Assembly (NCBI GenBank): GCA_023248495.1
Contig: JAHFEK010000002.1
Location: forward strand, 26,733 to 90,732
Length of the DNA: 64,000 nucleotides
Reading direction: 5' to 3'
Source: Nitrospinales bacterium
GTDB lineage: Bacteria; Nitrospinota_A; UBA7883; JACRGQ01
The notes under the pieces are model-generated. The model had not been told where the DNA came from and searched no databases. It worked only from the letters and a program-made list of their open reading frames with translations. The position numbers and the translations under genes were made by a program. Each line of letters opens with the position of its first letter. Within the stretch, counting starts at the first letter, position 1. This document shows, one piece after another, positions 12,759-28,840 of the stretch.

Positions 12759-12810
12759 TACGACTCCCTATGCATGTAACCTTGATTAACATCATCGAAT
12801 CATTAGAAAA

Positions 12811-12830: not shown

Positions 12831-12937
12831 CGCCAACGATAAATTACTCCGCAGGAATATACCCCAAAACGGCGTCCGGCGGTAAAAAAACACCTCGCTG
12901 TCATGCGCGGGATTACATTTCGGCCTTCCCATCACAC

Positions 12938-15439
12938 TCAAGAATTATGCCTTTCCGCGTTGCCGCCAAGCGGGATTATCAAGAACACGGCCACCAAGCC
13001 AAACGTAACGCCCAGCAGCGATGTTATGCCTATCGAATGAAGGGCCGGATGGCGCGCGAAGGCAAGTGAGCCCAAGCCAAAAATGGTGGAGAGGGCCGAC
13101 AGCGTTATGGCGCCGCTCATATTGGCGAGATAGGCGCCACCTTCAATATCCACACGCTCGCATGCCTCCAACAAAAAAACGGCATAATCGCTCACCACGC
13201 CAAAGATGAGAAAAATAACAATGATGGAATTCATGATATCTATGTTTATTCCCAGCAGACCCATCATGCCAAACGTCCAGAACAGGCAGACAAAAAGGGG
13301 AACCATCAGCTTAACCAGCTTCGGGCCGCTCTTCTTTGCATAGAACCAAACGGCGATGGTGACGAATAAAAGAATAATTCCTCCCAGCCGCGCCATCTCG
13401 GCCTGAATAATGGTGACGATATGTTTCACAAACGACTTGCCATTGGTCACCATGGCGGAAGGAACCGTCTTTTCCAAAATAGCGATGACGGCTGGAGTGT
13501 CGCTGTCATCGGCCATTTTTAAGTTCGTCAATATCATCACCCCATCGGGCTTAACGGAAATCTGGTTGGCGGCAATCATCTTCAGGAATCCGGCGTTGAA
13601 TGCCTCCAGCGTAAGCGGCGGCATGGAGCCGGGAAAGGCGTCCAACGCTGGCATCACCACACGCGGCTGAATCCGCAGTTCTGCGCAAACCCCTTCCACA
13701 TCCTGCCTCAGCTTCACAAGCCTTTCCGGCGACCAGAAATCAGCCCACCTGCGCCTGTTGGCCTCCTGCGTGGCCTTGCCGGGGAACAGAAGCGCGATGG
13801 AGTTGTTGCCCGTTATCCGCCCCTCTTTCTGTAAAACGGCGGTTTTGGCGAACAGTATTTCGTTTTTTTCAAGCGCATCGTCCATGTCCTTGCCCAGAAC
13901 GACCGCAGAGCTGTCATCCAACGCCGCGCCGAACGATTTCATCACTATGTCCCAATCCCTTTTGGTGCCGGGCATCGCTCCGTTAAGTTTCTGCACATCC
14001 CCTTCTATTTTCAGCCGGGTCACGCCGAACAAAGCCACAAATGAAATAGCGGCAACAATTATCAGCAGGATATTTTGCCGCGTGGCCGCCAGTTTAAAAA
14101 AGGGCGGAAAAATGGTTTTCAGATTTAAAACCGGGCCGCCCTTTTGGGCTGGCGCCGGTTTGGGTATCAACAGCGGCAGAACCAGCAGGGCAAGGGAAAA
14201 AGCCCCAATGATCCCCAACGCCGCGAAAAGTCCCAACTGCCGGTAACCGGGAAGCACGGATAATTGCAGCGTCATGAACGCCAGAAGCGTGGTGGCGGCA
14301 TTAAATATCATCGGCCGTGATACTCTGTCCGTGATGCGCACGATGGCGCCCCTGTCGGCTTTTTCCGGGGGAATTTGATCCGCGTGAAACAAAACGTAAA
14401 TCCCAAAATCGACCACCAACCCTATCAACATCGCGCCGCATCCGAATGATATGGCCGATACGCCCGGAGAGATAAGAATGACCATGCCGCTGGCGAAGAT
14501 GCCGCCGAAAAAAGCCGGCAGCAAGGTGAGAACGGCCATCACGACGGGGCGGCGGTAGACCATGAGCGTCATGAGAATGATGGCGATGGATGAAATGCTA
14601 AGGGTTTTTACTATATCCCCCTTGATCATATCCGCATTGTCCAAGGCGAACCGGTGACTGCCTAGATAGGCGATGTGCAACCGCCCGGGTGACACGGCTT
14701 CGGCCTCCTTGGCGGCGGCGTCCGTAAAATCCACCAATTCCTTGGCATAAACGGAATCCGTTCCGGGCCGCGCGGGCTGAGCAAGAATAAGGATGTGCTC
14801 CATATCGCCGCTAAACACCCGGCCTTCGGCCATCCGAACCTGCCCGCCCATCGATTTGAACTTTTCCAGCTTCTTCATGAGAATCGCATCCATAGCCAAC
14901 GGATCGCGGTAAAAAGCCTGAGCAATAAACGGAGCCGGCGATTCGGCGAGCAGTTTTTTCCATCCCTCAAATGTTTGCCTGATCGATTCCTTGGCAAGCT
15001 TTCCTTCCAGCTCCGCACGATCCTCTTCGGTGAACAGGCTTGCCCGGCGTTCGCGGAGGGAATCGAGCGCGGCGGTGACATCGTCAACATCCCACCGGTA
15101 CTGAATTTCCCTAAAGTGGTTTGATGCGGACATCTTCGACACCATCGTATCGGCCGCCTTTATCAACTCGTCGCGGGAGGGATGCCCGCTTCCGTTTTCC
15201 GGCCCGACGTCGATGATCATGTATTCAAGGCGGTTGAAATTGGCTAAAACGGTTTTATATTTTTTCACCACGGCGTCCCCCGAAGGGACGAGATCCATAA
15301 CGTCCTCCCGCAGCCTTATCCCGGATGCCACGTACGAAAGAATGGCCGCGGCAAGAACAAAACCGGCGATGACCGGAATTTTTCGCCGGAAGAGCATTTG
15401 AAAAAATGCCGTCCCGTAGCCGCCCTTGTCCTCCGCCAT
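12938..15439 (-). CDS. RND/MMPL-family exporter
   Basis: 833 aa with two 6-TM bundles, each preceded by a large soluble loop. This is the exporter type found in aryl-polyene clusters. Confidence 0.75.
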   Translation of the reverse strand: MAEDKGGYGTAFFQMLFRRKIPVIAGFVLAAAILSYVASGIRLREDVMDLVPSGDAVVKKYKTVLANFNRLEYMIIDVGPENGSGHPSRDELIKAADTMVSKMSASNHFREIQYRWDVDDVTAALDSLRERRASLFTEEDRAELEGKLAKESIRQTFEGWKKLLAESPAPFIAQAFYRDPLAMDAILMKKLEKFKSMGGQVRMAEGRVFSGDMEHILILAQPARPGTDSVYAKELVDFTDAAAKEAEAVSPGRLHIAYLGSHRFALDNADMIKGDIVKTLSISSIAIILMTLMVYRRPVVMAVLTLLPAFFGGIFASGMVILISPGVSAISFGCGAMLIGLVVDFGIYVLFHADQIPPEKADRGAIVRITDRVSRPMIFNAATTLLAFMTLQLSVLPGYRQLGLFAALGIIGAFSLALLVLPLLIPKPAPAQKGGPVLNLKTIFPPFFKLAATRQNILLIIVAAISFVALFGVTRLKIEGDVQKLNGAMPGTKRDWDIVMKSFGAALDDSSAVVLGKDMDDALEKNEILFAKTAVLQKEGRITGNNSIALLFPGKATQEANRRRWADFWSPERLVKLRQDVEGVCAELRIQPRVVMPALDAFPGSMPPLTLEAFNAGFLKMIAANQISVKPDGVMILTNLKMADDSDTPAVIAILEKTVPSAMVTNGKSFVKHIVTIIQAEMARLGGIILLFVTIAVWFYAKKSGPKLVKLMVPLFVCLFWTFGMMGLLGINIDIMNSIIVIFLIFGVVSDYAVFLLEACERVDIEGGAYLANMSGAITLSALSTIFGLGSLAFARHPALHSIGITSLLGVTFGLVAVFLIIPLGGNAERHNS

Positions 15440-16146
15440 TATTGATCCTTGTCCGGAGACGGCAATAACCGCGCATCACCCGGCGTCACGTCTATTTTCA
15501 GCAGATCAATCCGCAACTGATACCCGTAACATCTGTTATTCACCACTATCCGCGATGGAAGCGGTTTTTCCCAACCGCGAAAAACCCGGTAGCCGGAATA
15601 AACCGCTTCACGCACCGGCGTTCCGTTTTCAACTTCCAGGGAGGACGCCAGAAAGCCGTCATCCGCAAAAACGAATTCGGATACGCCATTTCGGCCCTTG
15701 AGAATAAGACTGAGCCCGCCTTCCCGCCGCGAGGCAACATAGGAACCCTCAGGCTTCACCATAAACAGGTGTCGGACATCCCCCATTACACCGTCTAAAA
15801 GCGGGCCGGAAGGCATACCCGCGGGCTTTGACAAAATCTCACGCTTGCCATCCTGCTCGGCGAAATCGAACACCCTTCCCCCCATATCCCCAAAAGCCAT
15901 TGCGCGGTACCCGCCGTCTCTCTTTGCCGCGAGATAACCGATGAAATCATATTCCTTACCATTGATGGACAGAATAATGCGCTGTGAAATCCTGAACTCC
16001 GCCGGATATGGCGCAACCAGCGCGGCCATGCGAGCCTGTTCAACATCGGTGTTTTGCGCCGGGGGTTGAATTACATAACGGGGCGAGACGCAACCAAGGT
16101 CGGCAAGAATGAAAACGCAAAGGGCGGCGGCTATCGCGGCTCTCAT
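15439..16146 (-). CDS. lipoprotein (DUF3261-like, APE-cluster associated; tentative)
   Basis: Lipobox ILADLGC. Located between the LolA-like and MMPL genes with 1-4 nt overlaps. Confidence 0.5.
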   Translation of the reverse strand: MRAAIAAALCVFILADLGCVSPRYVIQPPAQNTDVEQARMAALVAPYPAEFRISQRIILSINGKEYDFIGYLAAKRDGGYRAMAFGDMGGRVFDFAEQDGKREILSKPAGMPSGPLLDGVMGDVRHLFMVKPEGSYVASRREGGLSLILKGRNGVSEFVFADDGFLASSLEVENGTPVREAVYSGYRVFRGWEKPLPSRIVVNNRCYGYQLRIDLLKIDVTPGDARLLPSPDKDQ

Positions 16147-16835
16147 TTGCCGGTGACGGCGGGGAGCAGCGGGTGGGCCAAGTCAAATATGCCGCGATCC
16201 AGCGTGCCGTTCTGCTCCTCGGCCAGAAACCGTATTTCAATATAATCGTCATGCGGCTCGTGAATGACGATCTTTGTCACATGATTCGTATTCCGGTCAA
16301 TTGAAAGCTCCATATCTTTAATCACTTTTGCAAGGCCGGCCGAAAGGGGCTTCAGGACGAGACGGCGGTCATTCCCCGGAATCACTGTAATGCCGTACAC
16401 CTTGTGAACTTTTTCGAAGTCGCCGTGCATGATGGCGAGAATCTGGTTTAACACTTCTTGCAGGACATCCTCCATTCCCAATTTCATCCGGACGTAGGCC
16501 CCATTTTCCCGGTTGAACTTCGCCACATACCCGCCGTTGAAAATAAGGATGGAGGAGAACGGCTCCGTGATTTCCCACCTCAGCTTGCCGGGCATCTCGA
16601 AATAAAAAATGCCCCGCGAACTCAGCACATCCAAGAAAATCGCGAGATGACGTTCCTGCGTAAACTCCGCTTTCAGCGTTTTGACCGATTGAAGGCTGGC
16701 GGTGATTTCCTTGATTACCTCGTCGACGCCGGGATTGACCGGATTCTTTGCGCCGCCCCCTGCGGCATGTGACATGGAACCGCCCAAGCAAAATAACGCC
16801 ACGGTAAAAATAATGGAGACAACCATTTTCTTCAT
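16143..16835 (-). CDS. LolA-like outer-membrane lipoprotein carrier protein
   Basis: Signal peptide. ...LQSVKTLKAEFTQERHLAIFLDVLSSRGIFYFEMPGKLRWE... matches the LolA pattern. Confidence 0.7.
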   Translation of the reverse strand: MKKMVVSIIFTVALFCLGGSMSHAAGGGAKNPVNPGVDEVIKEITASLQSVKTLKAEFTQERHLAIFLDVLSSRGIFYFEMPGKLRWEITEPFSSILIFNGGYVAKFNRENGAYVRMKLGMEDVLQEVLNQILAIMHGDFEKVHKVYGITVIPGNDRRLVLKPLSAGLAKVIKDMELSIDRNTNHVTKIVIHEPHDDYIEIRFLAEEQNGTLDRGIFDLAHPLLPAVTGK

Positions 16836-16845
16836 GGCGGTATCC

Positions 16846-17931
16846 CTATTGTTTTGAACCGGATACCGGGCGCCGGCCTTCCAGCGTTATGATGGAGCAG
16901 CTTCCGCCCACGCCGAACCCCACGCAATCTATCCCGGCATCGGCGGCGATAGGCGTGGCGGTTCTCTCGTCCTCCAACCGGTACACGATTCCATCGCGCA
17001 ACGAAAGAGCCGCAAAGGCCACATCAAAACCATTCCCTGCCGGCATTCCCCCATAGAGTGATGCATAGGCCACGACGCTCTTTTTCAAGCTTAGTATTGG
17101 CCGGTAATACTCCGCGGTCTCGCGAATGCCATTGGCCGCGATAAACACCTGTTCGTGGGGCAAGTCGGCCGCCGCGTCGAATCTGCCCACCGTGGCGGCG
17201 GTCAATCGGCAATAACTCCCATCCACGTCTCCCTTGCCCAAAAGGAAGGTAATGAAACCTTCACCAGGAACATGCGAACACCGGTCAAGGGATAACGGCC
17301 GCATCACGCCCGAACAACCGCCACGATTTAACGCCGCCGTCGAATACCCCCTCAAAGGGCAAAATTCGTCCCCCATGCCAGCCAGCACGTAATCCACCTG
17401 CCCCCCATGCAGCCAACCCATCGCCGTGGCAAGAACGGAGTGGGCTGTTTGCTCAAAAGATGTGACCGTTAAACAGGGGCCGTTGATTTTAAGCGCAATT
17501 GTCGCCTGTGCCGCCAACGCGTTATGCACTGAATTGGCAAAAAGAGTTGGGGACGCGAGCTTGTCGCCGTGATCGATCAAACTGTCAAGAAAACCGAATG
17601 TGGTTTGCATCGGGCCGTATCCGCTCCCGAACACGATACCGATCCGCGCCCTGTCCTCCAAAACCAAACCACCATCCTCGATGGCCAGAAACGATGCCAG
17701 AAGCGACATTTGACTCAAGCGATCCATTCGCCGAAGCGCGTTGCGCGGCAGAAACCGCTCAAGGCCGTTGATGGATGCGGTATATGCGTTGACCGCCGTC
17801 TCGCCAAAAACCGTGTCATATTTATGCGTCTCAATGAGCGGCGCAACACTTCCGGCAAGACCGGCCTTGAGGGATTCTACGCCACACCCAAGGGCGGACA
17901 CCGAACCAATACCCAGGATGGCGCAGCTCAT
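16846..17931 (-). CDS. beta-ketoacyl synthase-like protein lacking active-site Cys (chain-length-factor-like partner)
   Basis: KS fold, but GPCLTVTSFEQTAHSV aligns to GPAMTVANACSSGTDA of the adjacent KS, so Cys becomes Glu. 4-nt overlap with the upstream KS. Confidence 0.7.
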   Translation of the reverse strand: MSCAILGIGSVSALGCGVESLKAGLAGSVAPLIETHKYDTVFGETAVNAYTASINGLERFLPRNALRRMDRLSQMSLLASFLAIEDGGLVLEDRARIGIVFGSGYGPMQTTFGFLDSLIDHGDKLASPTLFANSVHNALAAQATIALKINGPCLTVTSFEQTAHSVLATAMGWLHGGQVDYVLAGMGDEFCPLRGYSTAALNRGGCSGVMRPLSLDRCSHVPGEGFITFLLGKGDVDGSYCRLTAATVGRFDAAADLPHEQVFIAANGIRETAEYYRPILSLKKSVVAYASLYGGMPAGNGFDVAFAALSLRDGIVYRLEDERTATPIAADAGIDCVGFGVGGSCSIITLEGRRPVSGSKQ

Positions 17932-19115
17932 GCGGACGGCATCCCCACCACCAACACGGCATTGTTGCCGCCGAATGCCAGCGAATTGGATATCGCCGTT
18001 GTTCCAGCGACGGGTGTGTTTTCGACCGTTGGCGTGATCACGCCCTCCCCTTCCTCAAATCCCAAGGTTGCAGGCACTCTCCGATCCATAAGGCCTTTCA
18101 CGGTGAATACCGCCTCGATAGCCCCCGCCGCGCCCAGCGTGTGGCCGGTATACGATTTGGTCGATACCACCGGTATGCGGGCTGGAAAAAGATCGGCGAT
18201 CACCTTTCCTTCCACTTTGTCATTGTCCACCGTCGATGTGCCATGGGCATTGATGAAGGCGACTTCGCCGAACGCCACACCGGCTTCCGCCAAAGCCATC
18301 TTCATGGCCCGCCGCAGACCCAGTCCTTCGGGGTGCGGGGCGGTTGGATGATACGCATCGGCGCTGCTGCCATACCCGTTGATGAAGGCAAGCGCCCGCG
18401 CGCCCCGGTTGCGGGCCGATTCATGATCTTCGATGATAAGGATGCCCGCCCCTTCGCCCAGGTTAAGCCCTTTTCTGTTGCGGTCAAAAGGACGGCACGG
18501 CTCTTGAGACGTTATCATAAGGCACGTAAATCCTATGTAGGTGGTGCGGCAGAGTTCATCGCTCCCGCCCGCGATAACGATATCGCACAGGCCGGTCTCT
18601 ATCCAATGTTTTGCGATACCCACGGCATCCGTGCCGGATGAGCACGCGTTGGCGACCGTCATCGCGGGGCCGCCGCATCCGAATAAACCGGCCAGATGCA
18701 AGGCCGGATTGTTTGCATGAAATCTTGTGACCGGCGAGACGTCCGGCTTTTGACTCAACCGGTACTCCCGGCAAAACTGTTCGTTGTTCAACGTACAGCC
18801 GACAGTAGTGCCCACGATCACGCCAACCCGCGCGGCTTTAAGGGCGGCCGCGTCCAGCCCGGCCTGCGCGAGAGCCTCCCGCGCGGCTTGGATGGCCAGC
18901 AGCGTGGTTCGCGTCGCGTTGCGCCCTTCGCCTTCCCCGGTGAAATCGGAAAATATTTCAAATACCGGGCTTATTTTTTCAATATCCGTCCGCACGAGCA
19001 CGGGCGGCGCGGGATTGCGCTCGCCGGCATAAAGCGACCGCATCGTTTCTTCCACGGTGGATCCGGCGGCGCATATGCACCCGAGCCCTGTAACCGCCGC
19101 GCGCCTTTTTTTCAT
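17928..19115 (-). CDS. beta-ketoacyl-ACP synthase (KAS I/II type)
   Basis: ANACSSG (Cys), INAHGTSTVDND and YTGHTLGAAG catalytic motifs. Confidence 0.9.
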   Translation of the reverse strand: MKKRRAAVTGLGCICAAGSTVEETMRSLYAGERNPAPPVLVRTDIEKISPVFEIFSDFTGEGEGRNATRTTLLAIQAAREALAQAGLDAAALKAARVGVIVGTTVGCTLNNEQFCREYRLSQKPDVSPVTRFHANNPALHLAGLFGCGGPAMTVANACSSGTDAVGIAKHWIETGLCDIVIAGGSDELCRTTYIGFTCLMITSQEPCRPFDRNRKGLNLGEGAGILIIEDHESARNRGARALAFINGYGSSADAYHPTAPHPEGLGLRRAMKMALAEAGVAFGEVAFINAHGTSTVDNDKVEGKVIADLFPARIPVVSTKSYTGHTLGAAGAIEAVFTVKGLMDRRVPATLGFEEGEGVITPTVENTPVAGTTAISNSLAFGGNNAVLVVGMPSA

Positions 19116-19369
19116 TTCCGGTCTTGTTGCGCCCTGATGTAGTTGGCTAACGAGCGAACCGAAGCAAAAACCTCTTTTGACTGCTCCAGGTCTTTCGTCT
19201 CTATCTTATAGTGCCTTTGAAGAAGCACCACGAGCTCCACGGCGTCCAATGAATCAAGGCCGAGGCCTTCACCAAAAAGAGGTTGATCGTCATTGATGTC
19301 TTCCGCTTTAATATCCACCAGCTTGAGTTCGGCAATGATCAATGATTTGAGTTCATTCTCTAAAGACAA
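19112..19369 (-). CDS. acyl carrier protein
   Basis: 85 aa with GLGLDSLDAVELV (phosphopantetheine Ser). Confidence 0.9.
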   Translation of the reverse strand: MSLENELKSLIIAELKLVDIKAEDINDDQPLFGEGLGLDSLDAVELVVLLQRHYKIETKDLEQSKEVFASVRSLANYIRAQQDRK

Positions 19370-19370
19370 T

Positions 19371-20324
19371 TCACACCCCTTCCTTATCGCGCATTGTTAC
19401 TTTGTACTTGCTGTCGGTTTTCCAAAAATCAAAGAAGTTAAACCACATATACGGGTATTTTTCAACGTATTCCTCAAGGCAGGCGACGTACCGCCCCATG
19501 AGCGCCTTCACCGCCGCTTCACGGGGCATTTGCGTCCAATCCTCTTCCCCGCTAATACATCTGGCCTCGACGCTGAAAGACAACGCGCCGGTTCTAACTG
19601 TCAATAAAACCACCAGATTTGCGCCCGTGGCGGCGACAAGGTAATACGGCATCATTGGAAAAGGGGCCTTTTCCCCTAAAAACTCCATTTCAATTGTTTT
19701 TGCCCCAAAAGCCCTGTCACCCATAATGGCAACCACTTCGCCCGCGTTAAGCGCATTGGTAGCCTCCACCATTCCCCCCAGGAAACCGCCGGGCGGAATG
19801 AAATGAAACCGGTCGCGCTGACCCGCCAAGTCGAAGAAATGCCGCCCCTCGATCCCCGCAAGGTTAAACAATAGATGCACCCTTTTTTCTATACGGTTCA
19901 TATTCGCCATGGCCGCCTGCCAATTCCCCGCGTGCGTGGTGAGCAAAACAATGCCGCGCTTTTCTTTTGAAAGACGCTGCAACACTTCGCCCCCGCGCAC
20001 ATCAATCGTGAAACGCTCCTTTTTCAAGATGCCCATGGCAGCTTGGTCTATAAGCACTTTGCCAAACTGGTATATATAATACGCGGTGGTCATGAAAAGG
20101 CGTACTCCGCCCAAGCCGGGAAATCGATGCCGAAGGTAGAAGGAGGCCGAAAGCCTCGCGCCCGTCCTCAACAATAGATAGTATGGCACAATGAACGCCA
20201 GTAGCAAATACGCGGGTATGGGCCCCAAGGCGCGAATCAACAAATGAAATATCGCGAACCCGGCCCTGTTGCCGTAATTGGGAGGGTTGGGGGCGTTGGC
20301 CATGGAGTCGGAACTAACCGACAT
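19371..20324 (-). CDS. LpxL/HtrB-family (lysophospholipid/lipid A-type) acyltransferase
   Basis: General family resemblance and the position typical of APE clusters. The ORF track starts at a TTG at 20399 (86-nt overlap with GT2). ATG at 20324 gives an 11-nt overlap and is preferred. The start is uncertain. Confidence 0.6.
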   Translation of the reverse strand: MSVSSDSMANAPNPPNYGNRAGFAIFHLLIRALGPIPAYLLLAFIVPYYLLLRTGARLSASFYLRHRFPGLGGVRLFMTTAYYIYQFGKVLIDQAAMGILKKERFTIDVRGGEVLQRLSKEKRGIVLLTTHAGNWQAAMANMNRIEKRVHLLFNLAGIEGRHFFDLAGQRDRFHFIPPGGFLGGMVEATNALNAGEVVAIMGDRAFGAKTIEMEFLGEKAPFPMMPYYLVAATGANLVVLLTVRTGALSFSVEARCISGEEDWTQMPREAAVKALMGRYVACLEEYVEKYPYMWFNFFDFWKTDSKYKVTMRDKEGV

Positions 20325-21072
20325 GACGCTCTTCGCCCCGTGGGACGATAAGGCCCTTGTTCTCCCGGCAAAAAAGCGCTTTATGCGGCCAAGGAACAAG
20401 AGTCCTTATAACGAGCCGTGTGTAGGCCCTCGAAATGCGGAGATTATCCATAAACGGATCGAAATGGGAGCCCTTTCTCGTCTCGTCTGAATAATGCACC
20501 GAAATGGGAATGGACGTTAAACCAACTCCCGCCCAGGCGCTCCGGACAAGTATCTCCACTTCAAAATCATATTTCCTGCCGAAACAAACGACTTTCCTCA
20601 AAGCGGCCACCGGATATCCCCTAAATCCGCTTTGACTGTCGCGCACGCTCCACCCGCAGGTTATCCATAACCACATGTTGGACCATTTCCGGCCAAAGCG
20701 GCTTGATAAAGGTACCGTTTCCTTGAATTGCCGGTCGCCGATAACGATGGAAAGGGGGTCCTTCATTATCATTTCAACAAAACCGGGGATGTCGGCCGGA
20801 TCGTGTTGGCCATCGGCATCGATGGTTATAAGATGAGTGAATCCGTTTGCTTCCGCCCAGCCGGCGCCGGCAAGGATCGCGGCGCCCTTGCCTTTGTTGG
20901 CCGGGAAGTCCACGCGCGCGACCGCCAGCCCTTCCAATGTTTCAGGGCCTCCATCCGTGGCTCCATCATTGACGACAAGAACCGGGAGGCCGGATACAAT
21001 GGCTTTTTCAGCCACTGCCCGCAACGTCCCCCGGTTATTGAATGTGGGAATGACAACGGCGATCTTAATCAT
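20314..21072 (-). CDS. family-2 glycosyltransferase
   Basis: MIKIAVVIPTFNNRGTL...VLVVNDGATDG...IDADGQH (GT-A DxD region). The start was moved to the ATG at 21072, which abuts the upstream stop. Confidence 0.8.
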   Translation of the reverse strand: MIKIAVVIPTFNNRGTLRAVAEKAIVSGLPVLVVNDGATDGGPETLEGLAVARVDFPANKGKGAAILAGAGWAEANGFTHLITIDADGQHDPADIPGFVEMIMKDPLSIVIGDRQFKETVPLSSRFGRKWSNMWLWITCGWSVRDSQSGFRGYPVAALRKVVCFGRKYDFEVEILVRSAWAGVGLTSIPISVHYSDETRKGSHFDPFMDNLRISRAYTRLVIRTLVPWPHKALFCRENKGLIVPRGEERHVG

Positions 21073-22436
21073 CACGCGCGCTTTCTGGAGTAAGAACTCC
21101 TTTGACCAAGGAGCAGATCCCATACCGGGCCACGATACCCCATTTTATGAAATGATTTGGCCCTCTCCGATTCACGATCCATTGGATATATCCTGTCGAT
21201 GCGGCGGCCGAAAGACTGGGCAATCGCCTGATCCAGATATTCGGCGGTAACATTCGCCGAGAAATAGAAGAAAGGCTCCAACAGATCGTCCGTGGGGGAA
21301 ACTACCCCTTCCTTGACGGCGCGCAAATATATCGGCGTGCCGGGAATGACACGTACCCCGGTCGCGGCGAAAACGACGCAATTTTCAAGGCGGGCGATAT
21401 TTGCCAGTCCTTCTTGCACCGTCTCCGGCGTTTCACCAGGTCCGCCAAACACGATAAAATGAGCGCAGTATATCCCCGCCGAACTGAAAAGCTTGTTGCT
21501 CTCCTCGACGTCCGCCCATGAAAAACTTTTATCCATCCCCTTGAGGGTGGGATTCGACGCGCAATCCGTCCCCCATTCCACGGCTTTCAGCCCGGAACGT
21601 TTCAGCAGCTGAACATCCCCTTCGTTGAATTTTCCCGGCTTAAAATAGGCCATCCACGGCACGGCGATCCCGCGCCTGACAAGTTCTTCGGTTATCTCAA
21701 GATATTTTCCGCCCGGATCGTTATAAACGGAATCCGCGATAAAATAATAATCAACGTTGTATTTTTCAATCAACATTTGAATTTCGTCCGCCACATCGGT
21801 GGCCGGCCGGTAGCGGTAGCTTTTCCCCTCCAAATTCGGGTAGGTGCAATAGGCGCATTTAAACGGGCAGCCGCGCTTGGTCTGTACGTTTATCATGCCG
21901 CCGCTTTTCAGATAAAAAGCCATGTAGCCCGCATTGCGCTCCGTAATGGCCACCTCATTCCCCCGCAGCGGCACATTGATGCTCAACACTTTTTCCCGCG
22001 GAACGCGGCCGGCAACCAGGTCTTCAATCAGATCGGGGAACACAACCTCTCCCTCGCCGGCGATTCCGTAATCGGCGCCGGTCCGTTCCAGTAAAATATC
22101 GGGAAAAAGGGAATAACCCGGCCCGCCCAAAACTATGGGGCTGGGGGATGATGCGCGTATGGCTTTTACAATGGTCGTGCAAAACTGGGTATATGAGATC
22201 GTGTTGCCGGAATTGCAGTTGTCGATATTGCGCATGGAAATGCCGATGACATCCGGCGCAAAAGCCTTAACCGCGTCCATCAAGCGCTCAATGGATTCCC
22301 CTTCCGCGAGGAAGTCGAACTCCAGCGTTTCGTGGCCGCGCCGCCTTACATCGTGAGCCACCATGGCCATTCCCAACGGATACACGGGATATGGTTCCAC
22401 CGTGATGTTGGATGAAACCATAAGGACTTTAGCCAT
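21072..22436 (-). CDS. B12-binding-domain radical SAM enzyme (class B)
   Basis: N-terminal B12-like domain (KVLMVSSN...VIGISMRN...VLGGPG) and TKRGCPFKCAYCTY. Confidence 0.85.
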   Translation of the reverse strand: MAKVLMVSSNITVEPYPVYPLGMAMVAHDVRRRGHETLEFDFLAEGESIERLMDAVKAFAPDVIGISMRNIDNCNSGNTISYTQFCTTIVKAIRASSPSPIVLGGPGYSLFPDILLERTGADYGIAGEGEVVFPDLIEDLVAGRVPREKVLSINVPLRGNEVAITERNAGYMAFYLKSGGMINVQTKRGCPFKCAYCTYPNLEGKSYRYRPATDVADEIQMLIEKYNVDYYFIADSVYNDPGGKYLEITEELVRRGIAVPWMAYFKPGKFNEGDVQLLKRSGLKAVEWGTDCASNPTLKGMDKSFSWADVEESNKLFSSAGIYCAHFIVFGGPGETPETVQEGLANIARLENCVVFAATGVRVIPGTPIYLRAVKEGVVSPTDDLLEPFFYFSANVTAEYLDQAIAQSFGRRIDRIYPMDRESERAKSFHKMGYRGPVWDLLLGQRSSYSRKRA

Positions 22437-22438
22437 TG

Positions 22439-23722
22439 TTAACGGACAACTCCCGAACCGGCCTGATCCGGCCGCAAGCGGCGGACATAACCCTCGGCGG
22501 CAAGCGGTGATTGATACGTGCCGTCGGCTATCTCGCGGCGGATGACCTTCATGAACAGATCGCCCATTTTAAGTTCCTGATTTCTTTCTTTGTAGAAAGT
22601 ATCCCAGGCGTAATAATACATATCCTGCAACTCCGCCGGGGTCATCTTTTTAGGTTGAAAGGCCACCTTGTCGCATGTGTAGTTGGCCCAGTTGTTGTTT
22701 AGTATCCGGCCTTGCTTTTCCAGTTGCGCCCGCAATGGGGTATGCAGGTAGGGCGTCAGAATGGTGAACTCGGCGAGATCCAGTTTCACCTCCAGCAGAA
22801 AATCGACCAGCCGCTTGATATAATCCGCGTCCTGATCGTCGGTTCCCAGAAGAATCGTCCCTTCCACCCCGATCCCATTATCATGCAACCGCTTTATTCT
22901 GTTGCGAATATGGTCGGACGTATCGAACACCGCCTGATAGACGTACCAAGCCCCAGACTTATAGGCCAAATCGAGCAGCTTGTCGTTATCCTCGATGGGA
23001 TGACTGACCCACTTCTTTTTCAGGGGGATCATCGCCGTAAAAAGCTCCTCTTCCCATTTCGCATTTTGCGCAAGGGAATTATCAACGATGAACAACCGGT
23101 TGTTGTCTATGGATTCAATCTCTTCCACCACCTTGGCGATGGGGCGCGGCCGGAAGACCCTTCCGCCGAGAAAAGGAGCCGCGCAGGGGAAACATTTAAA
23201 TTTGCAGCCACGCGAGGCGTGAACCAAATCAAGCATTTTTACCCCGCGATGAACATACCGTTCGCGGTTCAATATGCCGCGGCGGGCGGTGCCCACCAGC
23301 TCGATGGGAGGGCTGTCCCCGCTAAAATCATACTCGGGCCGCAACTGCCCTTTCTTCAAATCCTCAAGAACTTTTTCCATCCGCCCTTCGGCTTCCCCGA
23401 TAAAAACGCTGTCAACATGCCGGCCCATTTCCTCGCTGTGCAGAGCGGTGGAGATTCCCCCGGCGATCACTTTGACGCCACGGCTCCTGAAATGGTCGGC
23501 AAGCGCAAAGGCGCGGGGAAGTTGCGCCGTAAGCATAACGGAAAGAGCCACCACGTCAGGTGTATCGTCGAGATTCACTTCATCCACGTTCTCGTCGGTG
23601 AATTGAACATCGACCCAAGATGGCAAAGTGGCCGCGAATACGACCGGCCCGTGGGGCGGCAAATTGAAATGCGTCTGCCTTTCGAGCTTACGCCACTTGG
23701 GATAAATTAGTTTCATTTTCAT
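22439..23722 (-). CDS. B12-binding-domain radical SAM enzyme (class B)
   Basis: N-terminal B12-like domain (VVALSVML...VIAGGIS) and ASRGCKFKCFPCAAP (CxxxCxxC). Confidence 0.8.
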   Translation of the reverse strand: MKMKLIYPKWRKLERQTHFNLPPHGPVVFAATLPSWVDVQFTDENVDEVNLDDTPDVVALSVMLTAQLPRAFALADHFRSRGVKVIAGGISTALHSEEMGRHVDSVFIGEAEGRMEKVLEDLKKGQLRPEYDFSGDSPPIELVGTARRGILNRERYVHRGVKMLDLVHASRGCKFKCFPCAAPFLGGRVFRPRPIAKVVEEIESIDNNRLFIVDNSLAQNAKWEEELFTAMIPLKKKWVSHPIEDNDKLLDLAYKSGAWYVYQAVFDTSDHIRNRIKRLHDNGIGVEGTILLGTDDQDADYIKRLVDFLLEVKLDLAEFTILTPYLHTPLRAQLEKQGRILNNNWANYTCDKVAFQPKKMTPAELQDMYYYAWDTFYKERNQELKMGDLFMKVIRREIADGTYQSPLAAEGYVRRLRPDQAGSGVVR

Positions 23723-23725: not shown

Positions 23726-24421
23726 TTAAGTCTCCGCTGGCGTGAAAAGGTTCTCTAAAGAAGGTATCGCATTGTTTTCATAGCTTAATATGCCCTTCTC
23801 GTATCTTATTCTAGAGGCGTAGGGTAGCACACGGCTTGGATTAGGGTCAAGCAACACAAATATGGATCCACTGATCTTATGTCCATTCTCAGACATATCC
23901 GGCGGGGGGCTGTCTATCCAACCGGCCAGCATCTTTGACGCCTTTCCCGACGCAAGCATCGATACCGCGTTATTGAGCGCAAAACTCCCCAACCCTCCCT
24001 GGTTACCCACGCAAAAAGTCGGCCCGGTAAGCCGGAATAAAACGGCACATTCTCCTAACACGATAACCGGCAAGGTGTATGAAAAAAGGTTGGGACTGGA
24101 AAGGGTGCCGCCCTGATCAAGCGTCGTTTGATAATATGCCATATCGGTCTCCAATACATCGTATGTAGTGGATACCACCATCCCAACCGGTTCGGTAAAT
24201 CCCTCTTCATGACCGGCATCCTTTAAAGTAAGCGCCACCGCCGCGCATCCCAGCGTGGTGAAGCGGTCAAATCGTCCATACCGTGAATGGGGGCGGGTGA
24301 ACACCTCTTTGGCAGGTGGGATAATCGCGGGGCCGGGCACAATCAGGGGTTTCCGCCCCTCGCTCAACCGGCCATGCCCCCCCGCGGATACCCATGCCCC
24401 GCCGGTAATCCAAATATCCAT
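23726..24421 (-). CDS. short KS-like protein without catalytic Cys/His (CLF-like partner)
   Basis: 231 aa covering the N-terminal thiolase half only. The aligned active-site position reads GPTFCVGNQGG (no Cys at the nucleophile position). It abuts the upstream KS stop. Confidence 0.6.
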   Translation of the reverse strand: MDIWITGGAWVSAGGHGRLSEGRKPLIVPGPAIIPPAKEVFTRPHSRYGRFDRFTTLGCAAVALTLKDAGHEEGFTEPVGMVVSTTYDVLETDMAYYQTTLDQGGTLSSPNLFSYTLPVIVLGECAVLFRLTGPTFCVGNQGGLGSFALNNAVSMLASGKASKMLAGWIDSPPPDMSENGHKISGSIFVLLDPNPSRVLPYASRIRYEKGILSYENNAIPSLENLFTPAET

Positions 24422-25540
24422 CTACGCCCTTTCAAACATGAGGGCGGCGTTGCAGCCGCCGAATCCGGAGTTTGATTTCAATATATTGTTTCCGGGAAAC
24501 GGCTGTTCGGCGCCGCGCGCTCTTCCCACGGCCCTCTCTTCCGGATTAATCAGCCCCGCTGTCGGAGGCGCTATCCCCTCATTCATGGCGCGGACCGCTA
24601 TGGCGGTCTCTACCGCTCCCGCGGGTCCCAAGGTATGCCCTATGCTTCCCTTCACGGAAAACAACGGAAAGCGCCGGGAACCGAATACCGACTCAAGGGC
24701 GGTAAGCTCCATGGCATCGTTATATGGCGTGCCGGTTCCGTGGGGACAAAAGGCTTCCACCGCGTCAGGTGAAATGCCCGCCTGTCCGAGGGCCGAATTG
24801 ATGGCGCTAATCAGGCCGCTGCCATTTTTCGCCGGGCCGGTGATATGGTTTGCATCGTTGGCTATGCCCCACCCGGTCAATTTCGCCAGCGGCCCGCTGC
24901 CCAGTCTTTTAGCTATTTGCGGATCGGTCAACAGCACCGCCGCCGCGCCATCGCCTAAGCAAAGGCCATCCCGCGCCGCGTCAAAGGGGCGGCATTTGCC
25001 CGGCGAAAGTCCGCGCAGGGCGGAAAATCCGGTAAAAGTGAATCGGCTAACGGTATCGGCGCCGCACACCAGCACACTGGAACATTCCCCATCGGCGATC
25101 ATCCTCGCGCCGATCGCCATTCCCACGGTCGATGAAGTGCAGGCGGCATTGACCTCCCACCCCTCATTCGCTAGCCCCAAACGGCGCGAAACCCACTGGC
25201 GATAATGATTGGGCAAAAAGAGATCCATCCCCCCTCCGCCCCCGGCCTTGCTTTCGACGTGCTGCGCATCACCCTTAATACCGGTCCAGATAACCCGCGT
25301 ATCGTTGGGGATGGGCTTAAGTTGCTCCAACGCCATCGCCATGAGGGCGCAGACAATATTTTCCCCGCCGGGCGCCAGTCCCTCAACGCACGCGCCATCG
25401 TGAAATTCCAACCGGTCTGTTTGAAATCGCGTAATGGGACGCACGGCGGAAACGCCTGCCCGAAGCGCCGTCCAAGTGGCATCAACGGAACCTCCCAACG
25501 CCGTAACGATGGCGGCATCCATCACGAAAACCTCATTCAT
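24422..25540 (-). CDS. beta-ketoacyl-ACP synthase
   Basis: NAACTSS, CPHGTGTPYND and GSIGHTLGPAG motifs. The start was moved to MNEVFVMD (25540), just after the upstream stop at 25533. Confidence 0.85.
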   Translation of the reverse strand: MNEVFVMDAAIVTALGGSVDATWTALRAGVSAVRPITRFQTDRLEFHDGACVEGLAPGGENIVCALMAMALEQLKPIPNDTRVIWTGIKGDAQHVESKAGGGGGMDLFLPNHYRQWVSRRLGLANEGWEVNAACTSSTVGMAIGARMIADGECSSVLVCGADTVSRFTFTGFSALRGLSPGKCRPFDAARDGLCLGDGAAAVLLTDPQIAKRLGSGPLAKLTGWGIANDANHITGPAKNGSGLISAINSALGQAGISPDAVEAFCPHGTGTPYNDAMELTALESVFGSRRFPLFSVKGSIGHTLGPAGAVETAIAVRAMNEGIAPPTAGLINPEERAVGRARGAEQPFPGNNILKSNSGFGGCNAALMFERA

Positions 25541-26009
25541 GAAAACGGTTTTCCTTCCATCGCGCGCAGAAATCCTCCACAAAAGGGGGCCGGGCCAGCA
25601 ACAGATCATGTTCATGATTCACCAGAAGCTGCACGGTGTAACCGGTTGCGGCAATGCGCCCCCCCGCCGCGGTAATTTTATACTGAAAATTCATCCGGAC
25701 CGCTTCCGTCCAATGCAATGAAGCGGTAATGGTAAACTCCTCGCCGAATATGAGGGGGCTGTGATAATCGATGTGCATCTGGACCACAGGGGCCAGAAAT
25801 TTTTCCCTGTGCATTTCCAAATATCCCATGCCGAACTTCTCGCCGAAGGCCATCCGCCCGTCTTCCATATAGCTGGGATACCGTCCGTGCCACACGATTG
25901 CCAACGCATCCACCTCTTCAAAACGGACTTTCCGTTTTATTTCCGCCACCAAGGGGGACGGGTCGCCGGGGTTATGGGGAAAATAATCCGGATTGGCGCG
26001 TCTACTCAT
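25533..26009 (-). CDS. hotdog-fold acyl-CoA/ACP thioesterase (4HBT/YbgC-like)
   Basis: ...VRFEEVDALAIVWHGRYPSYMEDGRMAF... The start was moved to MSRRANPD (26009), giving an 8-nt overlap with the upstream gene. Confidence 0.7.
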   Translation of the reverse strand: MSRRANPDYFPHNPGDPSPLVAEIKRKVRFEEVDALAIVWHGRYPSYMEDGRMAFGEKFGMGYLEMHREKFLAPVVQMHIDYHSPLIFGEEFTITASLHWTEAVRMNFQYKITAAGGRIAATGYTVQLLVNHEHDLLLARPPFVEDFCARWKENRFHE

Positions 26010-26895
26010 TGTCCGCTGATTCCTTAATTGCCGAAAAGTCGAAGGTGGCGGCGGTTTTTCCTTCCGAGGATAATTGGGCGCGCACCGCATACGCACCGCC
26101 GGCCTCTTTAACGCTTACCGTCACCTTGATCGCATCTCCCGGTAAGACCAGCTTGGTAAACTTCGCGAACGCCAAACCGGATAACAGCAGTGGAGCGCCA
26201 CACACGGCCTCGCTCACCGCCTTTGACATGGCAACCATAACTATCCCCGGCAGAATGGGATTGCCGGGAAAATGGCCGTCAAAACCAGGAAAATCCTTTT
26301 GAAAACAAAACTCCCCCGTGGCGGTTCCGGCTTCCACCGAGACTCCCGCAATCTTCAGGTTATCTAAAATATGGCCGAACATTACACCCCGTTCCGGATG
26401 GGCCGCCGAACCGGCGAGCTTCTTTTCAACGGAAGCCGTTGCTGCCGGGATAGCGGCGCTTTCGGCTATGTAAAACTTCAGCTTTCCCGAAGCCAAACAC
26501 TTTCCGCCAACATACACATCCCCCTCGGCCACGACCACATTATTCATCTCCAGCAGTTTGCGCATTTTCAACTGCAGGGTATCGCCAATGACGGCGCGGC
26601 CCTTTATGGAAAAATCATTAACACCCACCAGATATCCGGTTCTAACAATGCCATCCCCCGTTGTCTTCGCGTTAAAACCTTCGGAGGCAGCGGTCAGTTG
26701 GGCGAGGCATTCCACGAAACAGACGCCGTCAAGCTTGCCCTTTGAATCTAAAAACGGATTGTTGGCTGCAATAACCGATACGCCCGCCGCGTTCTCAGGT
26801 GTGGATTCGCGCAATTCGCCGATAAGAAGCATCGCCCTACGGTGAGGCACAAGCCCCACGGCGTTCGCCGGCAGATGCAATCTTTCACTTATCAT
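26002..26895 (-). CDS. double-hotdog beta-hydroxyacyl-ACP dehydratase (FabA/FabZ-like)
   Basis: The second half carries FDGHFPGNPILPGIVMV (FabZ His motif). The first half is a second hotdog repeat. Confidence 0.75.
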   Translation of the reverse strand: MISERLHLPANAVGLVPHRRAMLLIGELRESTPENAAGVSVIAANNPFLDSKGKLDGVCFVECLAQLTAASEGFNAKTTGDGIVRTGYLVGVNDFSIKGRAVIGDTLQLKMRKLLEMNNVVVAEGDVYVGGKCLASGKLKFYIAESAAIPAATASVEKKLAGSAAHPERGVMFGHILDNLKIAGVSVEAGTATGEFCFQKDFPGFDGHFPGNPILPGIVMVAMSKAVSEAVCGAPLLLSGLAFAKFTKLVLPGDAIKVTVSVKEAGGAYAVRAQLSSEGKTAATFDFSAIKESADNE

Positions 26896-26926: not shown

Positions 26927-27487
26927 TTACCGGAGAAATGTAATCCCCACCAGCAATTTACTGGAATTCAAGGGTACATTGGGCGACGCCGCGCCGGCAT
27001 TTGATATGTGATGAAACCGGTATTCCACGATTAAATGGTAATCCTTGTCCGTTTTGAATGCCACTCCCATCCCCGTCTGATAATTCCCGTTCAGGCGCGA
27101 TCCCATGCCTGGAATATCCGCGGCGATGTAAACAGGGCCGCCGCCCAGAAAGATGTACGGTTCATACTCATCGAACGAGGAAAAAAAATACGAGGCAAGG
27201 AAGTTCACCGCTATCATCGGCGGAACATCGGCCGCAAGGAAACTGGCCGGAAGCTCCACCAGCAAATCGTGACGGCCCTTATACCAAGAAGCGCCCATAT
27301 CGTCCACAAGAACCCGCTCATATCTCAACACGATATCGCCCGTTTCAACATGTTCGCGCGTTAAACCCATCCCCACATGCGTAGCGCCATACCCGCCCAG
27401 AACCGACCAGGACGAATCGTCCGCGCGCGCGGGCCCGGCCACACACAGACAGATGAGTGCCGCACACGCCACACGATGAAATAACAT
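26927..27487 (-). CDS. outer-membrane beta-barrel acyloxyacyl hydrolase (PagL-like lipid deacylase)
   Basis: Signal peptide, alternating beta-strand pattern, C-terminal FHHISNAG (PagL-type H-x-S-N) and terminal aromatic ...GITFLR. Confidence 0.6.
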   Translation of the reverse strand: MLFHRVACAALICLCVAGPARADDSSWSVLGGYGATHVGMGLTREHVETGDIVLRYERVLVDDMGASWYKGRHDLLVELPASFLAADVPPMIAVNFLASYFFSSFDEYEPYIFLGGGPVYIAADIPGMGSRLNGNYQTGMGVAFKTDKDYHLIVEYRFHHISNAGAASPNVPLNSSKLLVGITFLR

Positions 27488-27490: not shown

Positions 27491-28840
27491 TTACTGCCGT
27501 CTTAAATCAAAAAATGTGATTTTCTTCCGTTTCCCGGGGGGAAGCGTTTTGCCCAGATATTCTTCCTCTGTAATGAAAATGATTTCCGGCACAACACGGG
27601 CGCGCGCCCGCAAGCAATCCGATATCGCTTCCACGGAAAGCGAAGGATCGGTAACGGCAACATAAAGAAAAATGTTGTCGTTCCCGTCTTCCTTCTTCGT
27701 TGCCTCCACATAGGCGCCAGCCACTCCATCCACCCCTTCCGCCGCCGAAATCAGGAACGAGGGAAACACGGTGGTTCCCTTCACTTTCAGCATATGATTT
27801 TTTCTTCCAAGCACTGGCCCCAGCCGCGGAGTGCGTCTTCCGCATTCGCACTGGCCAATAATCATAAAGGAGATATCCCCGGTTCTGAACCGGATGAGGG
27901 GCATTCCCGTAACGCCCAGCGGAGTTACCACCAGTTCCCCCGTGTGGCCGTGCGGCACCGGCATGCCATGGCCGTCCACAATTTCCGCCACAACCAGTTC
28001 GGGGCGCAAATGCCCCCCCTGCCGCTCATGGCAATCGCAAAAGGCCGTCGCCATTTCGGTTGAGGCGTAGGTGGAATAAATGGCGGACCCCCACATTTCT
28101 TCCAGCTGCCGGACGGCGGGCAACAAGGCCATATCCTGGCCGCGGATGCTTTCGCCTATCGCCACCAGTTTGCGAACGCCGACGCTTTTTGGATCATCGC
28201 CGTTCTCGATGGCATATTGCCCGATTTTCCGTATCAGGGAAGGAACGCCGACGATTACCGTGGCCCCGCACCCCTTTAACAAATGCCAGTGCTGCGCCGC
28301 GCTGCCCGCGCCCGCCCGCACCATGCGCGCTCCGACCTTCAGTCCGCCCATGTAATAAGCTAGCCCGGCCATAAAACAGCGGTCGAGAGCGGCGCAAATA
28401 ATCACCGTGTCGGCGGCGCCGATGCCCATCATCCCGAATGCAGCTTCTTCGTTATATGCGAGCCGCGATAAGTCCGATGAGGTTTGCAGAAGCGCGTTCG
28501 GCGTATCCCCGGTGGTGGCCGAGGTGAGACATACATCGGCTATCTCTTCGGGAGAGCAGGCTAAAAAATCATTATTCCGGAGGGTAAGGTCATCCTTCGT
28601 GGTGCAGGGAATTTTCAACAGATCGGCCACGCCGCGTATCGAATGCGGATCAATCCCTTCCCGCGCGAACAACTCGCGGTAAAAGGGAGACCGCTGAGCG
28701 GTATATCGCAGATGTCCGGTCAAGAGCCTGTCTTGCGCGGCGGCAATTTTTTCATACCCCTCAAATTCCAGTCCCGCATACTCTTTCGCGGGAAAATCGG
28801 CAAGCAGGGACTGTCCGCGATGGCCGGCGTTAGTGCTCAT
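27491..28840 (-). CDS. PaaK/F390-synthetase-like adenylate-forming aryl-acid ligase
   Basis: 449 aa. The TSATTGD-type P-loop (LTSATTGDTPN), YASTE and a short C-terminal lid are typical of the phenylacetate-CoA ligase family. Confidence 0.7.
   Translation of the reverse strand: MSTNAGHRGQSLLADFPAKEYAGLEFEGYEKIAAAQDRLLTGHLRYTAQRSPFYRELFAREGIDPHSIRGVADLLKIPCTTKDDLTLRNNDFLACSPEEIADVCLTSATTGDTPNALLQTSSDLSRLAYNEEAAFGMMGIGAADTVIICAALDRCFMAGLAYYMGGLKVGARMVRAGAGSAAQHWHLLKGCGATVIVGVPSLIRKIGQYAIENGDDPKSVGVRKLVAIGESIRGQDMALLPAVRQLEEMWGSAIYSTYASTEMATAFCDCHERQGGHLRPELVVAEIVDGHGMPVPHGHTGELVVTPLGVTGMPLIRFRTGDISFMIIGQCECGRRTPRLGPVLGRKNHMLKVKGTTVFPSFLISAAEGVDGVAGAYVEATKKEDGNDNIFLYVAVTDPSLSVEAISDCLRARARVVPEIIFITEEEYLGKTLPPGKRKKITFFDLRRQ

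Follow-up and report, generated by a model that had tools for sequence, protein, structure and literature searches.

Three radical SAM genes of class-B architecture are conserved, co-located parts of an aryl-polyene-family cluster in a Nitrospinales bacterium

The closest described relatives of the gene cluster examined here come from anaerobic bacteria. Genes kuste3335-3352 of Kuenenia stuttgartiensis are strikingly syntenic with a cluster of Desulfotalea psychrophila, with similar clusters in Geobacter and Pelobacter, and the shared genes include a radical S-adenosylmethionine (SAM) pair (Kuste3343/DP1855 and Kuste3342/DP1853), a phytoene-desaturase-like protein, a 'phenylacetyl-CoA ligase' and an MMPL-like protein (Rattray et al. 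2009, PMC2649909). The Kuenenia list also holds a glycosyltransferase, a polysaccharide-deacetylase-like protein, two acyl carrier proteins (ACPs) and a third SAM enzyme, kuste3338 (PMC4790861). Genome-mining tools and NCBIfam name this cluster type 'ladderane-like', antiSMASH 'ladderane' clusters have been reported from many non-anammox phyla in metagenomic surveys (PMC9902471), and reviews published between 2022 and 2026 continue to count the 'ladderane' radical SAM enzymes among the uncharacterised ones (PMC9204698, PMC12931638, PMC13459092). Here we analyse a 64,000-nt stretch of a Nitrospinales bacterium (assembly GCA_023248495.1, contig JAHFEK010000002.1, positions 26,733 to 90,732; hereafter the window), which carries three radical SAM genes of class-B architecture, designated rSAM-A, rSAM-B and rSAM-C. 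The cluster type is already published and catalogued, and the window is a further example of a known puzzle, not a new system.

Like the Kuenenia/Desulfotalea type, the window combines two adjacent radical SAM genes and a third SAM enzyme with phytoene-desaturase-like and FabF-like ketosynthase (KS) genes, and the likeness extends to two ACPs, FabG, FabZ-like dehydratases, the 'phenylacetyl-CoA ligase', a glycosyltransferase, a deacetylase and an MMPL-like protein (PMC4790861). In contrast to that type, the window unites two sub-architectures known from other loci, one of KS3, a short KS-like protein of the chain-length-factor type (CLF), thioesterase, ammonia-lyase and rSAM-C, the other of CrtI, KS2, ACP, acyltransferase and ligase; its rSAM-C lies at the distal end, and it has neither the SPASM gene of Desulfobulbales nor the SAM methyltransferases of Kuenenia. 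Judged from a family model and the published synteny, the window genes are probably orthologous to kuste3342/3343. All three genes are conserved, co-located parts of an aryl-polyene (APE)-family cluster. We tentatively favour, with confidence somewhat short of even, the reading that the trio consists of integral, co-inherited tailoring enzymes of an anaerobe APE/flexirubin-family cluster, with rSAM-A acting as a cobalamin-dependent C-methylase. A prior sequence-only reading of the window had described three genes of class-B architecture embedded in a fatty-acid/polyene cluster, and this description holds: the three open reading frames (ORFs) lie on the minus strand at the stated coordinates, each protein has an N-terminal Rossmann-type domain (PF02310) and a CxxxCxxC motif, albeit with a marginal B12-binding score and a sub-cutoff Radical_SAM score for rSAM-B, and the KS, ACP, dehydratase and CrtI-like genes were confirmed, with membership shown by conserved synteny.

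A scan for relatives of rSAM-A, taking one genome per species, matched at least 592 genomes from Desulfobulbales, Geobacter/Desulfuromonadales, Phycisphaerae, Cloacimonadales, Calditrichota, Spirochaetota, Bacillota, Holophagae, Lentisphaerae and Nitrospirota. The closest among the matches listed is a Nitrospiraceae metagenome-assembled genome (MAG; locus L001 in our numbering) with a fully collinear cluster, and 'Proteobacteria' MAGs are also among the closest. All cluster proteins of the window were then compared by tblastn with the best 80 of these at least 592 loci, each with 10-kb flanks. rSAM-B occurs in 55 of the 80 and lies directly upstream of rSAM-A in 53, which substantiates the proposed tie of the radical SAM genes to APE-type clusters; rSAM-C occurs in 35, and in 28 of these it is the next gene after rSAM-A. 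Across phyla the genes typically run CLF - B - A - (C) - GT2 - acyltransferase - ACP - KS - KS-like, where GT2 denotes a family 2 glycosyltransferase, and Desulfobulbales and Geobacter loci are collinear with the window. Since rSAM-C usually follows rSAM-A, its distal position here, beside the ammonia-lyase gene, reflects a local rearrangement; the sequence-only reading located the gene correctly, but the arrangement is not typical. Within 52 loci, rSAM-B is the most conserved cluster protein in 48, and median identities are 64% for rSAM-B, 55% for rSAM-C, 44% for rSAM-A and 27-55% for the other cluster proteins. Over 41 full-flank loci, and uncorrected for phylogeny, those that hold rSAM-C tend also to hold the ammonia-lyase (p=0.008), KS3 (p=0.0005) and KS4b (p=0.002).

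Gene junctions point in the same direction as gene order. The minus-strand run from ~34624 to 8452 constitutes one 26-kb cluster with all three radical SAM genes, bordered at its promoter-proximal end by a divergent polynucleotide phosphorylase (PNPase) gene (plus strand, 35425) and at the other end by converging plus-strand genes. Consensus promoter/terminator scans returned counts near chance, and operon linkage was judged from gene junctions in their place. The CLF stop is separated from the rSAM-B start by 3 nt and the rSAM-B stop from the rSAM-A start by 2 nt, and the rSAM-A stop overlaps the probable GT2 start by 1 nt (TGATG); by these spacings, rSAM-B is predicted to be translationally coupled to the CLF-like gene upstream and to rSAM-A downstream. 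Gene calls of the metagenomic source contig show the same arrangement. A reading in which the radical SAM genes belong to an unrelated pathway, as mere neighbours of polyketide genes, would draw on a few solitary rSAM-A homologues among unrelated genes (L005, L009 and others) and on the only sizeable intergenic gap of the cluster (12759-12937, 179 nt, between the MMPL and ammonia-lyase genes), which has a weak hairpin ahead of the ammonia-lyase/deacetylase/rSAM-C block. It is contradicted by the order CLF-B-A-(C)-GT2-acyltransferase-ACP-KS kept across phyla and by start and stop codons that overlap or nearly do so, on the source contig as well, and we rejected it as scarcely credible.

The hairpin in the 179-nt gap is terminator-like (12831-12810, minus strand), and downstream of it the ammonia-lyase, deacetylase and rSAM-C genes may form a sub-operon. 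Solitary rSAM-A genes (L005 and L009, also L003, L012 and L051) share 42-50% identity with the window protein, and the two loci inspected have T9SS-tail proteins, a TonB receptor and a glycoside hydrolase as unrelated neighbours. Genes like those of TIGR04072, the family to which rSAM-A belongs, can therefore also lie apart from lipid genes. No plasmid matched the radical SAM pair in a DNA similarity search.

The related loci also delimit the gene set around the trio. Among 133 additional same-strand ORFs inside related clusters, the commonest domain pair is Radical_SAM plus SPASM (13 ORFs), a fourth radical SAM type, and class-I methyltransferases account for two. The SPASM-type ORF (~349 aa) sits just upstream of rSAM-B (L031:7124-8170, L042:7118-8164 and 11 other loci) in Desulfobulbales-type clusters, for example those of Desulforhopalus and Desulfosediminicola, and is absent from the window. 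In one Geobacteraceae MAG the cobalamin biosynthesis gene CbiG lies directly upstream of rSAM-B (L022:7486-8634), an anecdotal tie to cobalamin, though the gene may simply mark the cluster border. Homologues of the window's ligase at ~40% identity, from metagenomes that are mostly human gut (L081-L160), have a radical SAM gene in none of 80 loci, so the trio is specific to one branch of a wider family; at this identity, the loci are too distant to count as otherwise identical clusters without radical SAM genes. Their module comprises LolA, GT2, MMPL, a PlsC-type acyltransferase, a CrtI-like oxidase and a FlxY-like ligase, sometimes with a deacetylase-DUF2062 protein, and has no KS or radical SAM genes within 10 kb.

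The chemical assignment is clearest for rSAM-A. The protein scores 52.8 bits on the Pfam B12-binding model (aa 15-136) and 45.2 bits on Radical_SAM, and its CxxxCxxC motif is CPFKCAYC (C190/C194/C197, at 21846-21869), with cysteines invariant in the family alignment. It is a member of TIGR04072 (rSAM_ladder_B12, lipid biosynthesis B12-binding/radical SAM protein), reaching 566 bits over positions 1-442/443 against a cutoff of 360 that rSAM-B (47.9 bits) and rSAM-C (107.5 bits) miss, and its homologues number in the thousands. Outside its own family, the nearest named relatives are BzaD (197 bits, cutoff 450) and the TsrM family/tryptophan 2-C-methyltransferase (113 bits, cutoff 500). The closest solved structure is likewise TsrM (PDB 6WTE), at 101 bits from the single sequence and 175 bits from the rSAM-A family profile, with the Rossmann domain and the barrel both aligned. 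TsrM is a tryptophan C2-methyltransferase, and BzaD, predicted to methylate benzimidazole, is described in a 2026 review as a likely Csp2 methylase "reminiscent of TsrM"; both count as Csp2 methylases. Unlike these enzymes, which act on a free amino acid or base, rSAM-A occurs in the context of a carrier-protein-bound polyketide.

Motif comparison refines this kinship. In the "downstream cobalamin-binding motif" of TsrM, the arginine sits beneath the cobalt, where it has been proposed to promote methyl transfer (PMC9204698). Gly65-x-Thr67-x-Arg69 of TsrM aligns with G65-I-S67-M-R69 of rSAM-A, where G and R are invariant in the family and S nearly so, and the GG motif and GE element (GEGE) are retained as well. 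TsrM D271-S272-E273 aligns with D235-S236-V237 (GGE-equivalent; family consensus TDSVFND). In TsrM, Glu273 ligates the unique iron in place of SAM, which makes it a non-radical enzyme; rSAM-A has Val237 at this position and no iron-ligating glutamate, so its cluster should coordinate SAM and its reaction should proceed through a 5'-deoxyadenosyl radical. Overall, rSAM-A appears to be a TsrM/BzaD-lineage cobalamin methylase whose cluster cleaves SAM in the usual way. Methylation, one of the chemistries offered by the sequence-only reading, is thus best supported for this enzyme, because its nearest relatives are TsrM and BzaD and the TsrM cobalamin motifs are kept, while the product chemistry is deduced.

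The other two proteins have more distant relatives. On Pfam models, rSAM-B obtains 33.6 bits for B12-binding, marginally over the 32.1 cutoff, and 20 bits, below cutoff, for Radical_SAM; its motif is CKFKCFPC (C173/C177/C180, at 23183-23206), again with cysteines invariant in the family alignment. It fits no curated family (top NCBIfam score 59.7 bits) and matched no PDB sequence, yet has thousands of homologues, the top 120 of which are all at least 64% identical and span Nitrospirota, Desulfobacterota, Planctomycetota, Lentisphaerota and Sumerlaeota. An AlphaFold model built with 30 homologues (predicted local distance difference test, pLDDT, 88.6) predicts a Rossmann plus radical SAM barrel architecture, with AprD4 as the best fold match (template-modelling score, TM, 0.76; 17-18% identity), followed by MgmA, TsrM and CysS. 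rSAM-C scores 78.8 bits (B12-binding) and 86.2 bits (Radical_SAM), retains the GG and GEGE elements, and carries CPYSCSYC (C216/C220/C223, at 9229-9252) with family-invariant cysteines. Its top NCBIfam models are HpnJ (185 bits), BchE (172 bits), ApyD and a P-methyltransferase family (170-185 bits, about one third of the cutoffs), though no hopanoid or chlorophyll genes lie near it; its top PDB sequence match is AprD4 (92.6 bits). Pairwise identities within the trio are 32% for A-B, over 112 aa only, 23% for A-C (440 aa) and 23% for B-C (234 aa). The earlier description of the adjacent genes as paralogue-like was accordingly overstated, and recent duplication of the three, which belong to different subfamilies, was rejected.

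AprD4 is a radical SAM 1,2-diol dehydratase that acts on an aminoglycoside and binds no cobalamin (PDB 6FD2). This raises the alternative that rSAM-B and/or rSAM-C are cobalamin-independent, AprD4-like radical enzymes that modify the chain or head group anaerobically by a redox, dehydration or desaturation step, with rSAM-A as the only cobalamin user. Such a role would suit the AprD4 matches of both proteins and the marginal B12-binding score of rSAM-B. We nevertheless regard it as quite unlikely, in view of the B12-binding score of rSAM-C with its kept GG and GEGE and of the next fold matches of rSAM-B, all of them cobalamin-dependent; no motif is diagnostic in either direction.

The same data bear on the possibility that the radical SAM enzymes form C-C (or C-O) bonds, so that the polyene, acyl chain or aryl head is cyclised or cross-linked into an anaerobe-specific cyclic or dimeric lipid, with BchE, HpnJ, archaeal Tes/Grs and bacterial membrane-spanning-lipid synthases as model enzymes. 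The nearest named families of rSAM-C, HpnJ and BchE, are non-methylating, rSAM-B has no methylase relative above noise and a dehydratase as its best fold match, and its extreme conservation suits a scaffold-forming step better than decoration. Related clusters hold up to four radical SAM genes when the SPASM type is included, and reviews list 'ladderane' radical SAM chemistry as unsettled (PMC13459092, PMC12931638). However, the closest relatives and cobalamin-site motifs of rSAM-A are those of methylases, Desulfotalea has the cluster and yet only acyclic lipids in the one survey (PMC2649909), and every class-B group with a characterised member includes C-methyltransferases (PMC12931638). We judge bond formation rather unlikely, but it stays a live rival, chiefly for rSAM-B and rSAM-C. 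Its furthest-reaching form, improbable in our estimation, makes the B/A(/C) module a non-methylase radical machine forging C-C bonds in a carrier-bound polyene or aryl polyene. If true, anaerobes would possess outer-membrane lipids of a new structural class, cyclised or cross-linked, and the module would exemplify the kind of chemistry that gave rise to anammox ladderane synthesis.

Assignment of the cluster to the APE family was examined against the annotated APE cluster of E. coli CFT073 (ApeA-ApeR, NC_004431 1143727-1158748). Homologues share 22-45% identity overall, including the ketoreductase (KR) with ApeQ (42%), KS2 with ApeR (39%), KS4 with ApeO (39%) and ACP2 with ApeE (45%), and the thioesterase and MMPL protein correspond to ApeK and ApeM. 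Both clusters have a short CLF-type KS partner, LolA-like export, an acyl-AMP ligase and ApeI/ApeP-type dehydratases. Pfam and NCBIfam searches found neither an enoyl reductase, also absent from the E. coli cluster, nor a class-I methyltransferase domain among the ORFs of the window's cluster. Whereas E. coli has the ApeB methyltransferase beside CLF and no radical SAM gene, the window has three radical SAM genes and no ApeB, together with an additional ammonia-lyase, CrtI-like oxidase, PagL-like protein, deacetylase and two more KS. An ApeB homologue was likewise unmatched in all 80 related loci, in keeping with the earlier remark that no ordinary methyltransferase is present. E. coli ApeJ is a single fused protein (L161:41212-42888) equivalent to two window genes, GT2 and LpxL-like (19371-21123), a case of gene fusion or fission within the APE family. 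The 235-aa ORF between the LolA and MMPL genes occupies the same position as E. coli ApeN (DUF3261) but has no detectable similarity to it.

Flexirubin families provide a second point of comparison. FlxB is the best named family for the KR (310 bits) and FlxY for the ligase (432 bits), and FlxA matches the ammonia-lyase strongly (424 bits), but all three fall below their curated cutoffs (340, 520 and 700, respectively), and the ammonia-lyase scores slightly higher on histidine ammonia-lyase models. These matches would imply a tyrosine-derived aryl starter. The cluster therewith has the hallmarks of the APE family: type II KS/CLF pairs, discrete ACPs, a KR, ApeI/ApeP-type dehydratases in the absence of an enoyl reductase, a putative acyl-AMP ligase with a probable aryl starter supply, and an anchoring/export module of GT2/acyltransferase, thioesterase, LolA-like and MMPL proteins.

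A pathway can be drawn from these assignments, with substrates, methylation and product all deduced from homology. The ammonia-lyase would make a hydroxycinnamate starter, which the FlxY-like ligase would load on an ACP; KS/CLF pairs, the ketoreductase and ApeI/ApeP-like dehydratases would elongate it to a polyene, with no enoyl reduction step. The chain would then be joined to a lipid anchor by the thioesterase, acyltransferases, GT2 and deacetylase, and LolA, MMPL and the PagL-like protein would export it, yielding an outer-membrane lipid pigment of the aryl-polyene type. Within this scheme, the most likely task of rSAM-A is C-methylation at an sp2 carbon of the aryl head or polyene while these are bound to ACP, and rSAM-A would thereby take the place of E. 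coli's SAM methyltransferase ApeB. rSAM-B would perform a second essential radical step on the same intermediate or act jointly with rSAM-A, and rSAM-C may be an accessory enzyme of the ammonia-lyase/KS3 branch.

Several observations weigh against the trio being APE tailoring enzymes with rSAM-A as a methylase. To our knowledge, none of the three subfamilies has a member with a known product or enzyme activity, and class-B enzymes that catalyse non-methylating reactions exist, such as BchE, HpnJ, OxsB and BzaE. The lack of TsrM Glu273 in rSAM-A means that its mechanism must differ from that of TsrM, and the closest solved structure to both rSAM-B and rSAM-C belongs to an enzyme without cobalamin. 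No ammonia-lyase lies within 10 kb in 55 of the 80 rSAM-A loci, rSAM-A is solitary and outside any lipid cluster in five or six, and the co-occurrence p values of rSAM-C ignore phylogeny. kuste3342/3343 were not detectable upon expression in E. coli, and the Kuenenia cluster has SAM methyltransferases alongside its radical SAM genes (PMC4790861), a combination that weakens a simple argument from replacement of ApeB.

The name of the rSAM-A family, rSAM_ladder_B12, and the parallel in gene content with Kuenenia kuste3335-3352 (PMC4790861, PMC2649909) suggest a further candidate role, in which the cluster makes ladderane (concatenated cyclobutane) lipids and the radical SAM enzymes form the rings. 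The sequence-only reading had seen a ladderane echo in content only, which undersold a real homology, as rSAM-A passes the TIGR04072 cutoff and the cluster type has been published as syntenic. However, ladderanes are known from anammox bacteria only, and Desulfotalea carries the shared cluster and contained no ladderanes (PMC2649909, PMC9902471). The occurrence of the shared cluster in ladderane-free organisms argues against cyclobutane formation. Furthermore, the rSAM-A family extends over the at least 592 species genomes and many non-anammox phyla, and current studies assign ladderane synthesis to another cluster, one exclusive to anammox bacteria (PMC10139942). Ladderane producers are anammox Planctomycetes with this amxACP/amxFabZ cluster, whereas the closest genomes to the window among the matches listed are the Nitrospiraceae and 'Proteobacteria' MAGs. 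We therefore hold ladderane synthesis by this cluster to be extremely implausible. Literature searches for TIGR04072, by accession or family name, found none, those joining aryl polyene with cobalamin or with Geobacter found nothing relevant, and the Pelobacter genome paper does not discuss the cluster. The polyunsaturated hydrocarbons of Desulfotalea presumably come from Ole/Pfa genes and not from this cluster, but the literature searched held no paper linking them.

The genes of the cluster are listed in transcriptional order in Table 1.

Table 1. Genes of the 26-kb cluster, in window coordinates
Feature	Coordinates	Strand	Basis
FlxB/ApeQ-like (FabG/FlxB-like) ketoreductase, first cluster gene	33881-34624	minus	NCBIfam/ApeQ comparison
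KS1	32563-33780	minus	Pfam/NCBIfam
CrtI-like flavin amine oxidase	31100-32566	minus	Pfam/NCBIfam
KS2, ApeR-like	29859-31112	minus	Comparison with E. coli APE proteins
ACP1	29591-29866	minus	Domain search
PlsC-type acyltransferase	28830-29570	minus	Domain search
FlxY-like AMP-dependent (acyl-AMP) ligase	27491-28840	minus	NCBIfam
PagL-like protein	26927-27487	minus	Domain search
Fused ApeI/ApeP-like double dehydratase	26002-26895	minus	PF22817/PF22818 (ApeP/ApeI-like)
4HBT thioesterase, ApeK-like	25533-26096	minus	Pfam and ApeK comparison
KS3, ApeO-like ketosynthase	24422-25615	minus	Pfam/NCBIfam and ApeO comparison
CLF-type short KS-like protein, 231 aa, directly upstream of rSAM-B	23726-24421	minus	
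rSAM-B, 427 aa	22439-23722	minus	B12-domain/radical SAM architecture; no curated family
rSAM-A, 454 aa	21072-22436	minus	NCBIfam TIGR04072 (rSAM_ladder_B12) member
GT2 glycosyltransferase	up to 21123; real start probably ATG at 21072	minus	Domain search, ApeJ comparison
LpxL-like acyltransferase	19371-20399	minus	Domain search, ApeJ comparison
ACP2, ApeE-like	19112-19369	minus	Comparison with E. coli APE
KS4, ApeO-like	17928-19115	minus	
KS4b, KS-like partner of KS4 (Ketoacyl-synt_2)	16846-17931	minus	
LolA-like protein, export module	16143-16835	minus	
235-aa ORF between LolA and MMPL genes, export module	15439-16146	minus	No Pfam/NCBIfam match
MMPL/HAE3 transporter, ApeM-like, export module	12938-15439	minus	
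Aromatic amino-acid ammonia-lyase (HAL/TAL family)	11175-12758	minus	Pfam, 524 bits
Polysaccharide deacetylase and DUF2062 protein	9923-11137	minus	Domain search
rSAM-C, 481 aa, last cluster gene	8452-9897	minus	HpnJ/BchE/ApyD-like group

Outside the cluster, the window encodes several further proteins of note, all on the minus strand. A 966-aa ORF (39129-42029) fuses a URO-D/MtaA-like methyltransferase, a 2Fe-2S ferredoxin and two domains (middle and C-terminal) of RACo, which activates corrinoid proteins reductively; this fusion suggests corrinoid-dependent methyl-transfer metabolism in the host. A di-haem cytochrome c is fused to an ethylbenzene-dehydrogenase-type haem domain (45766-47322), a 683-aa protein has a cytochrome bd subunit-I-like domain (49004-51055), and a 959-aa protein combines a spermine-synthase-like domain with tetratricopeptide (TPR) repeats (53515-56394). 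The 602-aa ORF at 1189-2997 has no Pfam or NCBIfam match.

This cluster type ranks with the commonest predicted 'ladderane' and 'arylpolyene' clusters in anaerobic bacteria and metagenomes. A 2026 review names ladderanes and the jawsamycin product as the sole lipids of the fatty-acyl type for which modification by radical SAM enzymes has even been proposed (PMC13459092). What the window contributes is a clean, complete example and sharpened hypotheses for its three enzymes, with rSAM-A as a candidate TsrM/BzaD-lineage methylase whose radical site is canonical, rSAM-B as the most constrained of the proteins and rSAM-C as a candidate ammonia-lyase-linked enzyme. One solved cluster would assign function to thousands of proteins, would clarify any tie of the shared genes to ladderanes and would reveal the oxygen-free routes by which strict anaerobes build or decorate polyene lipids.

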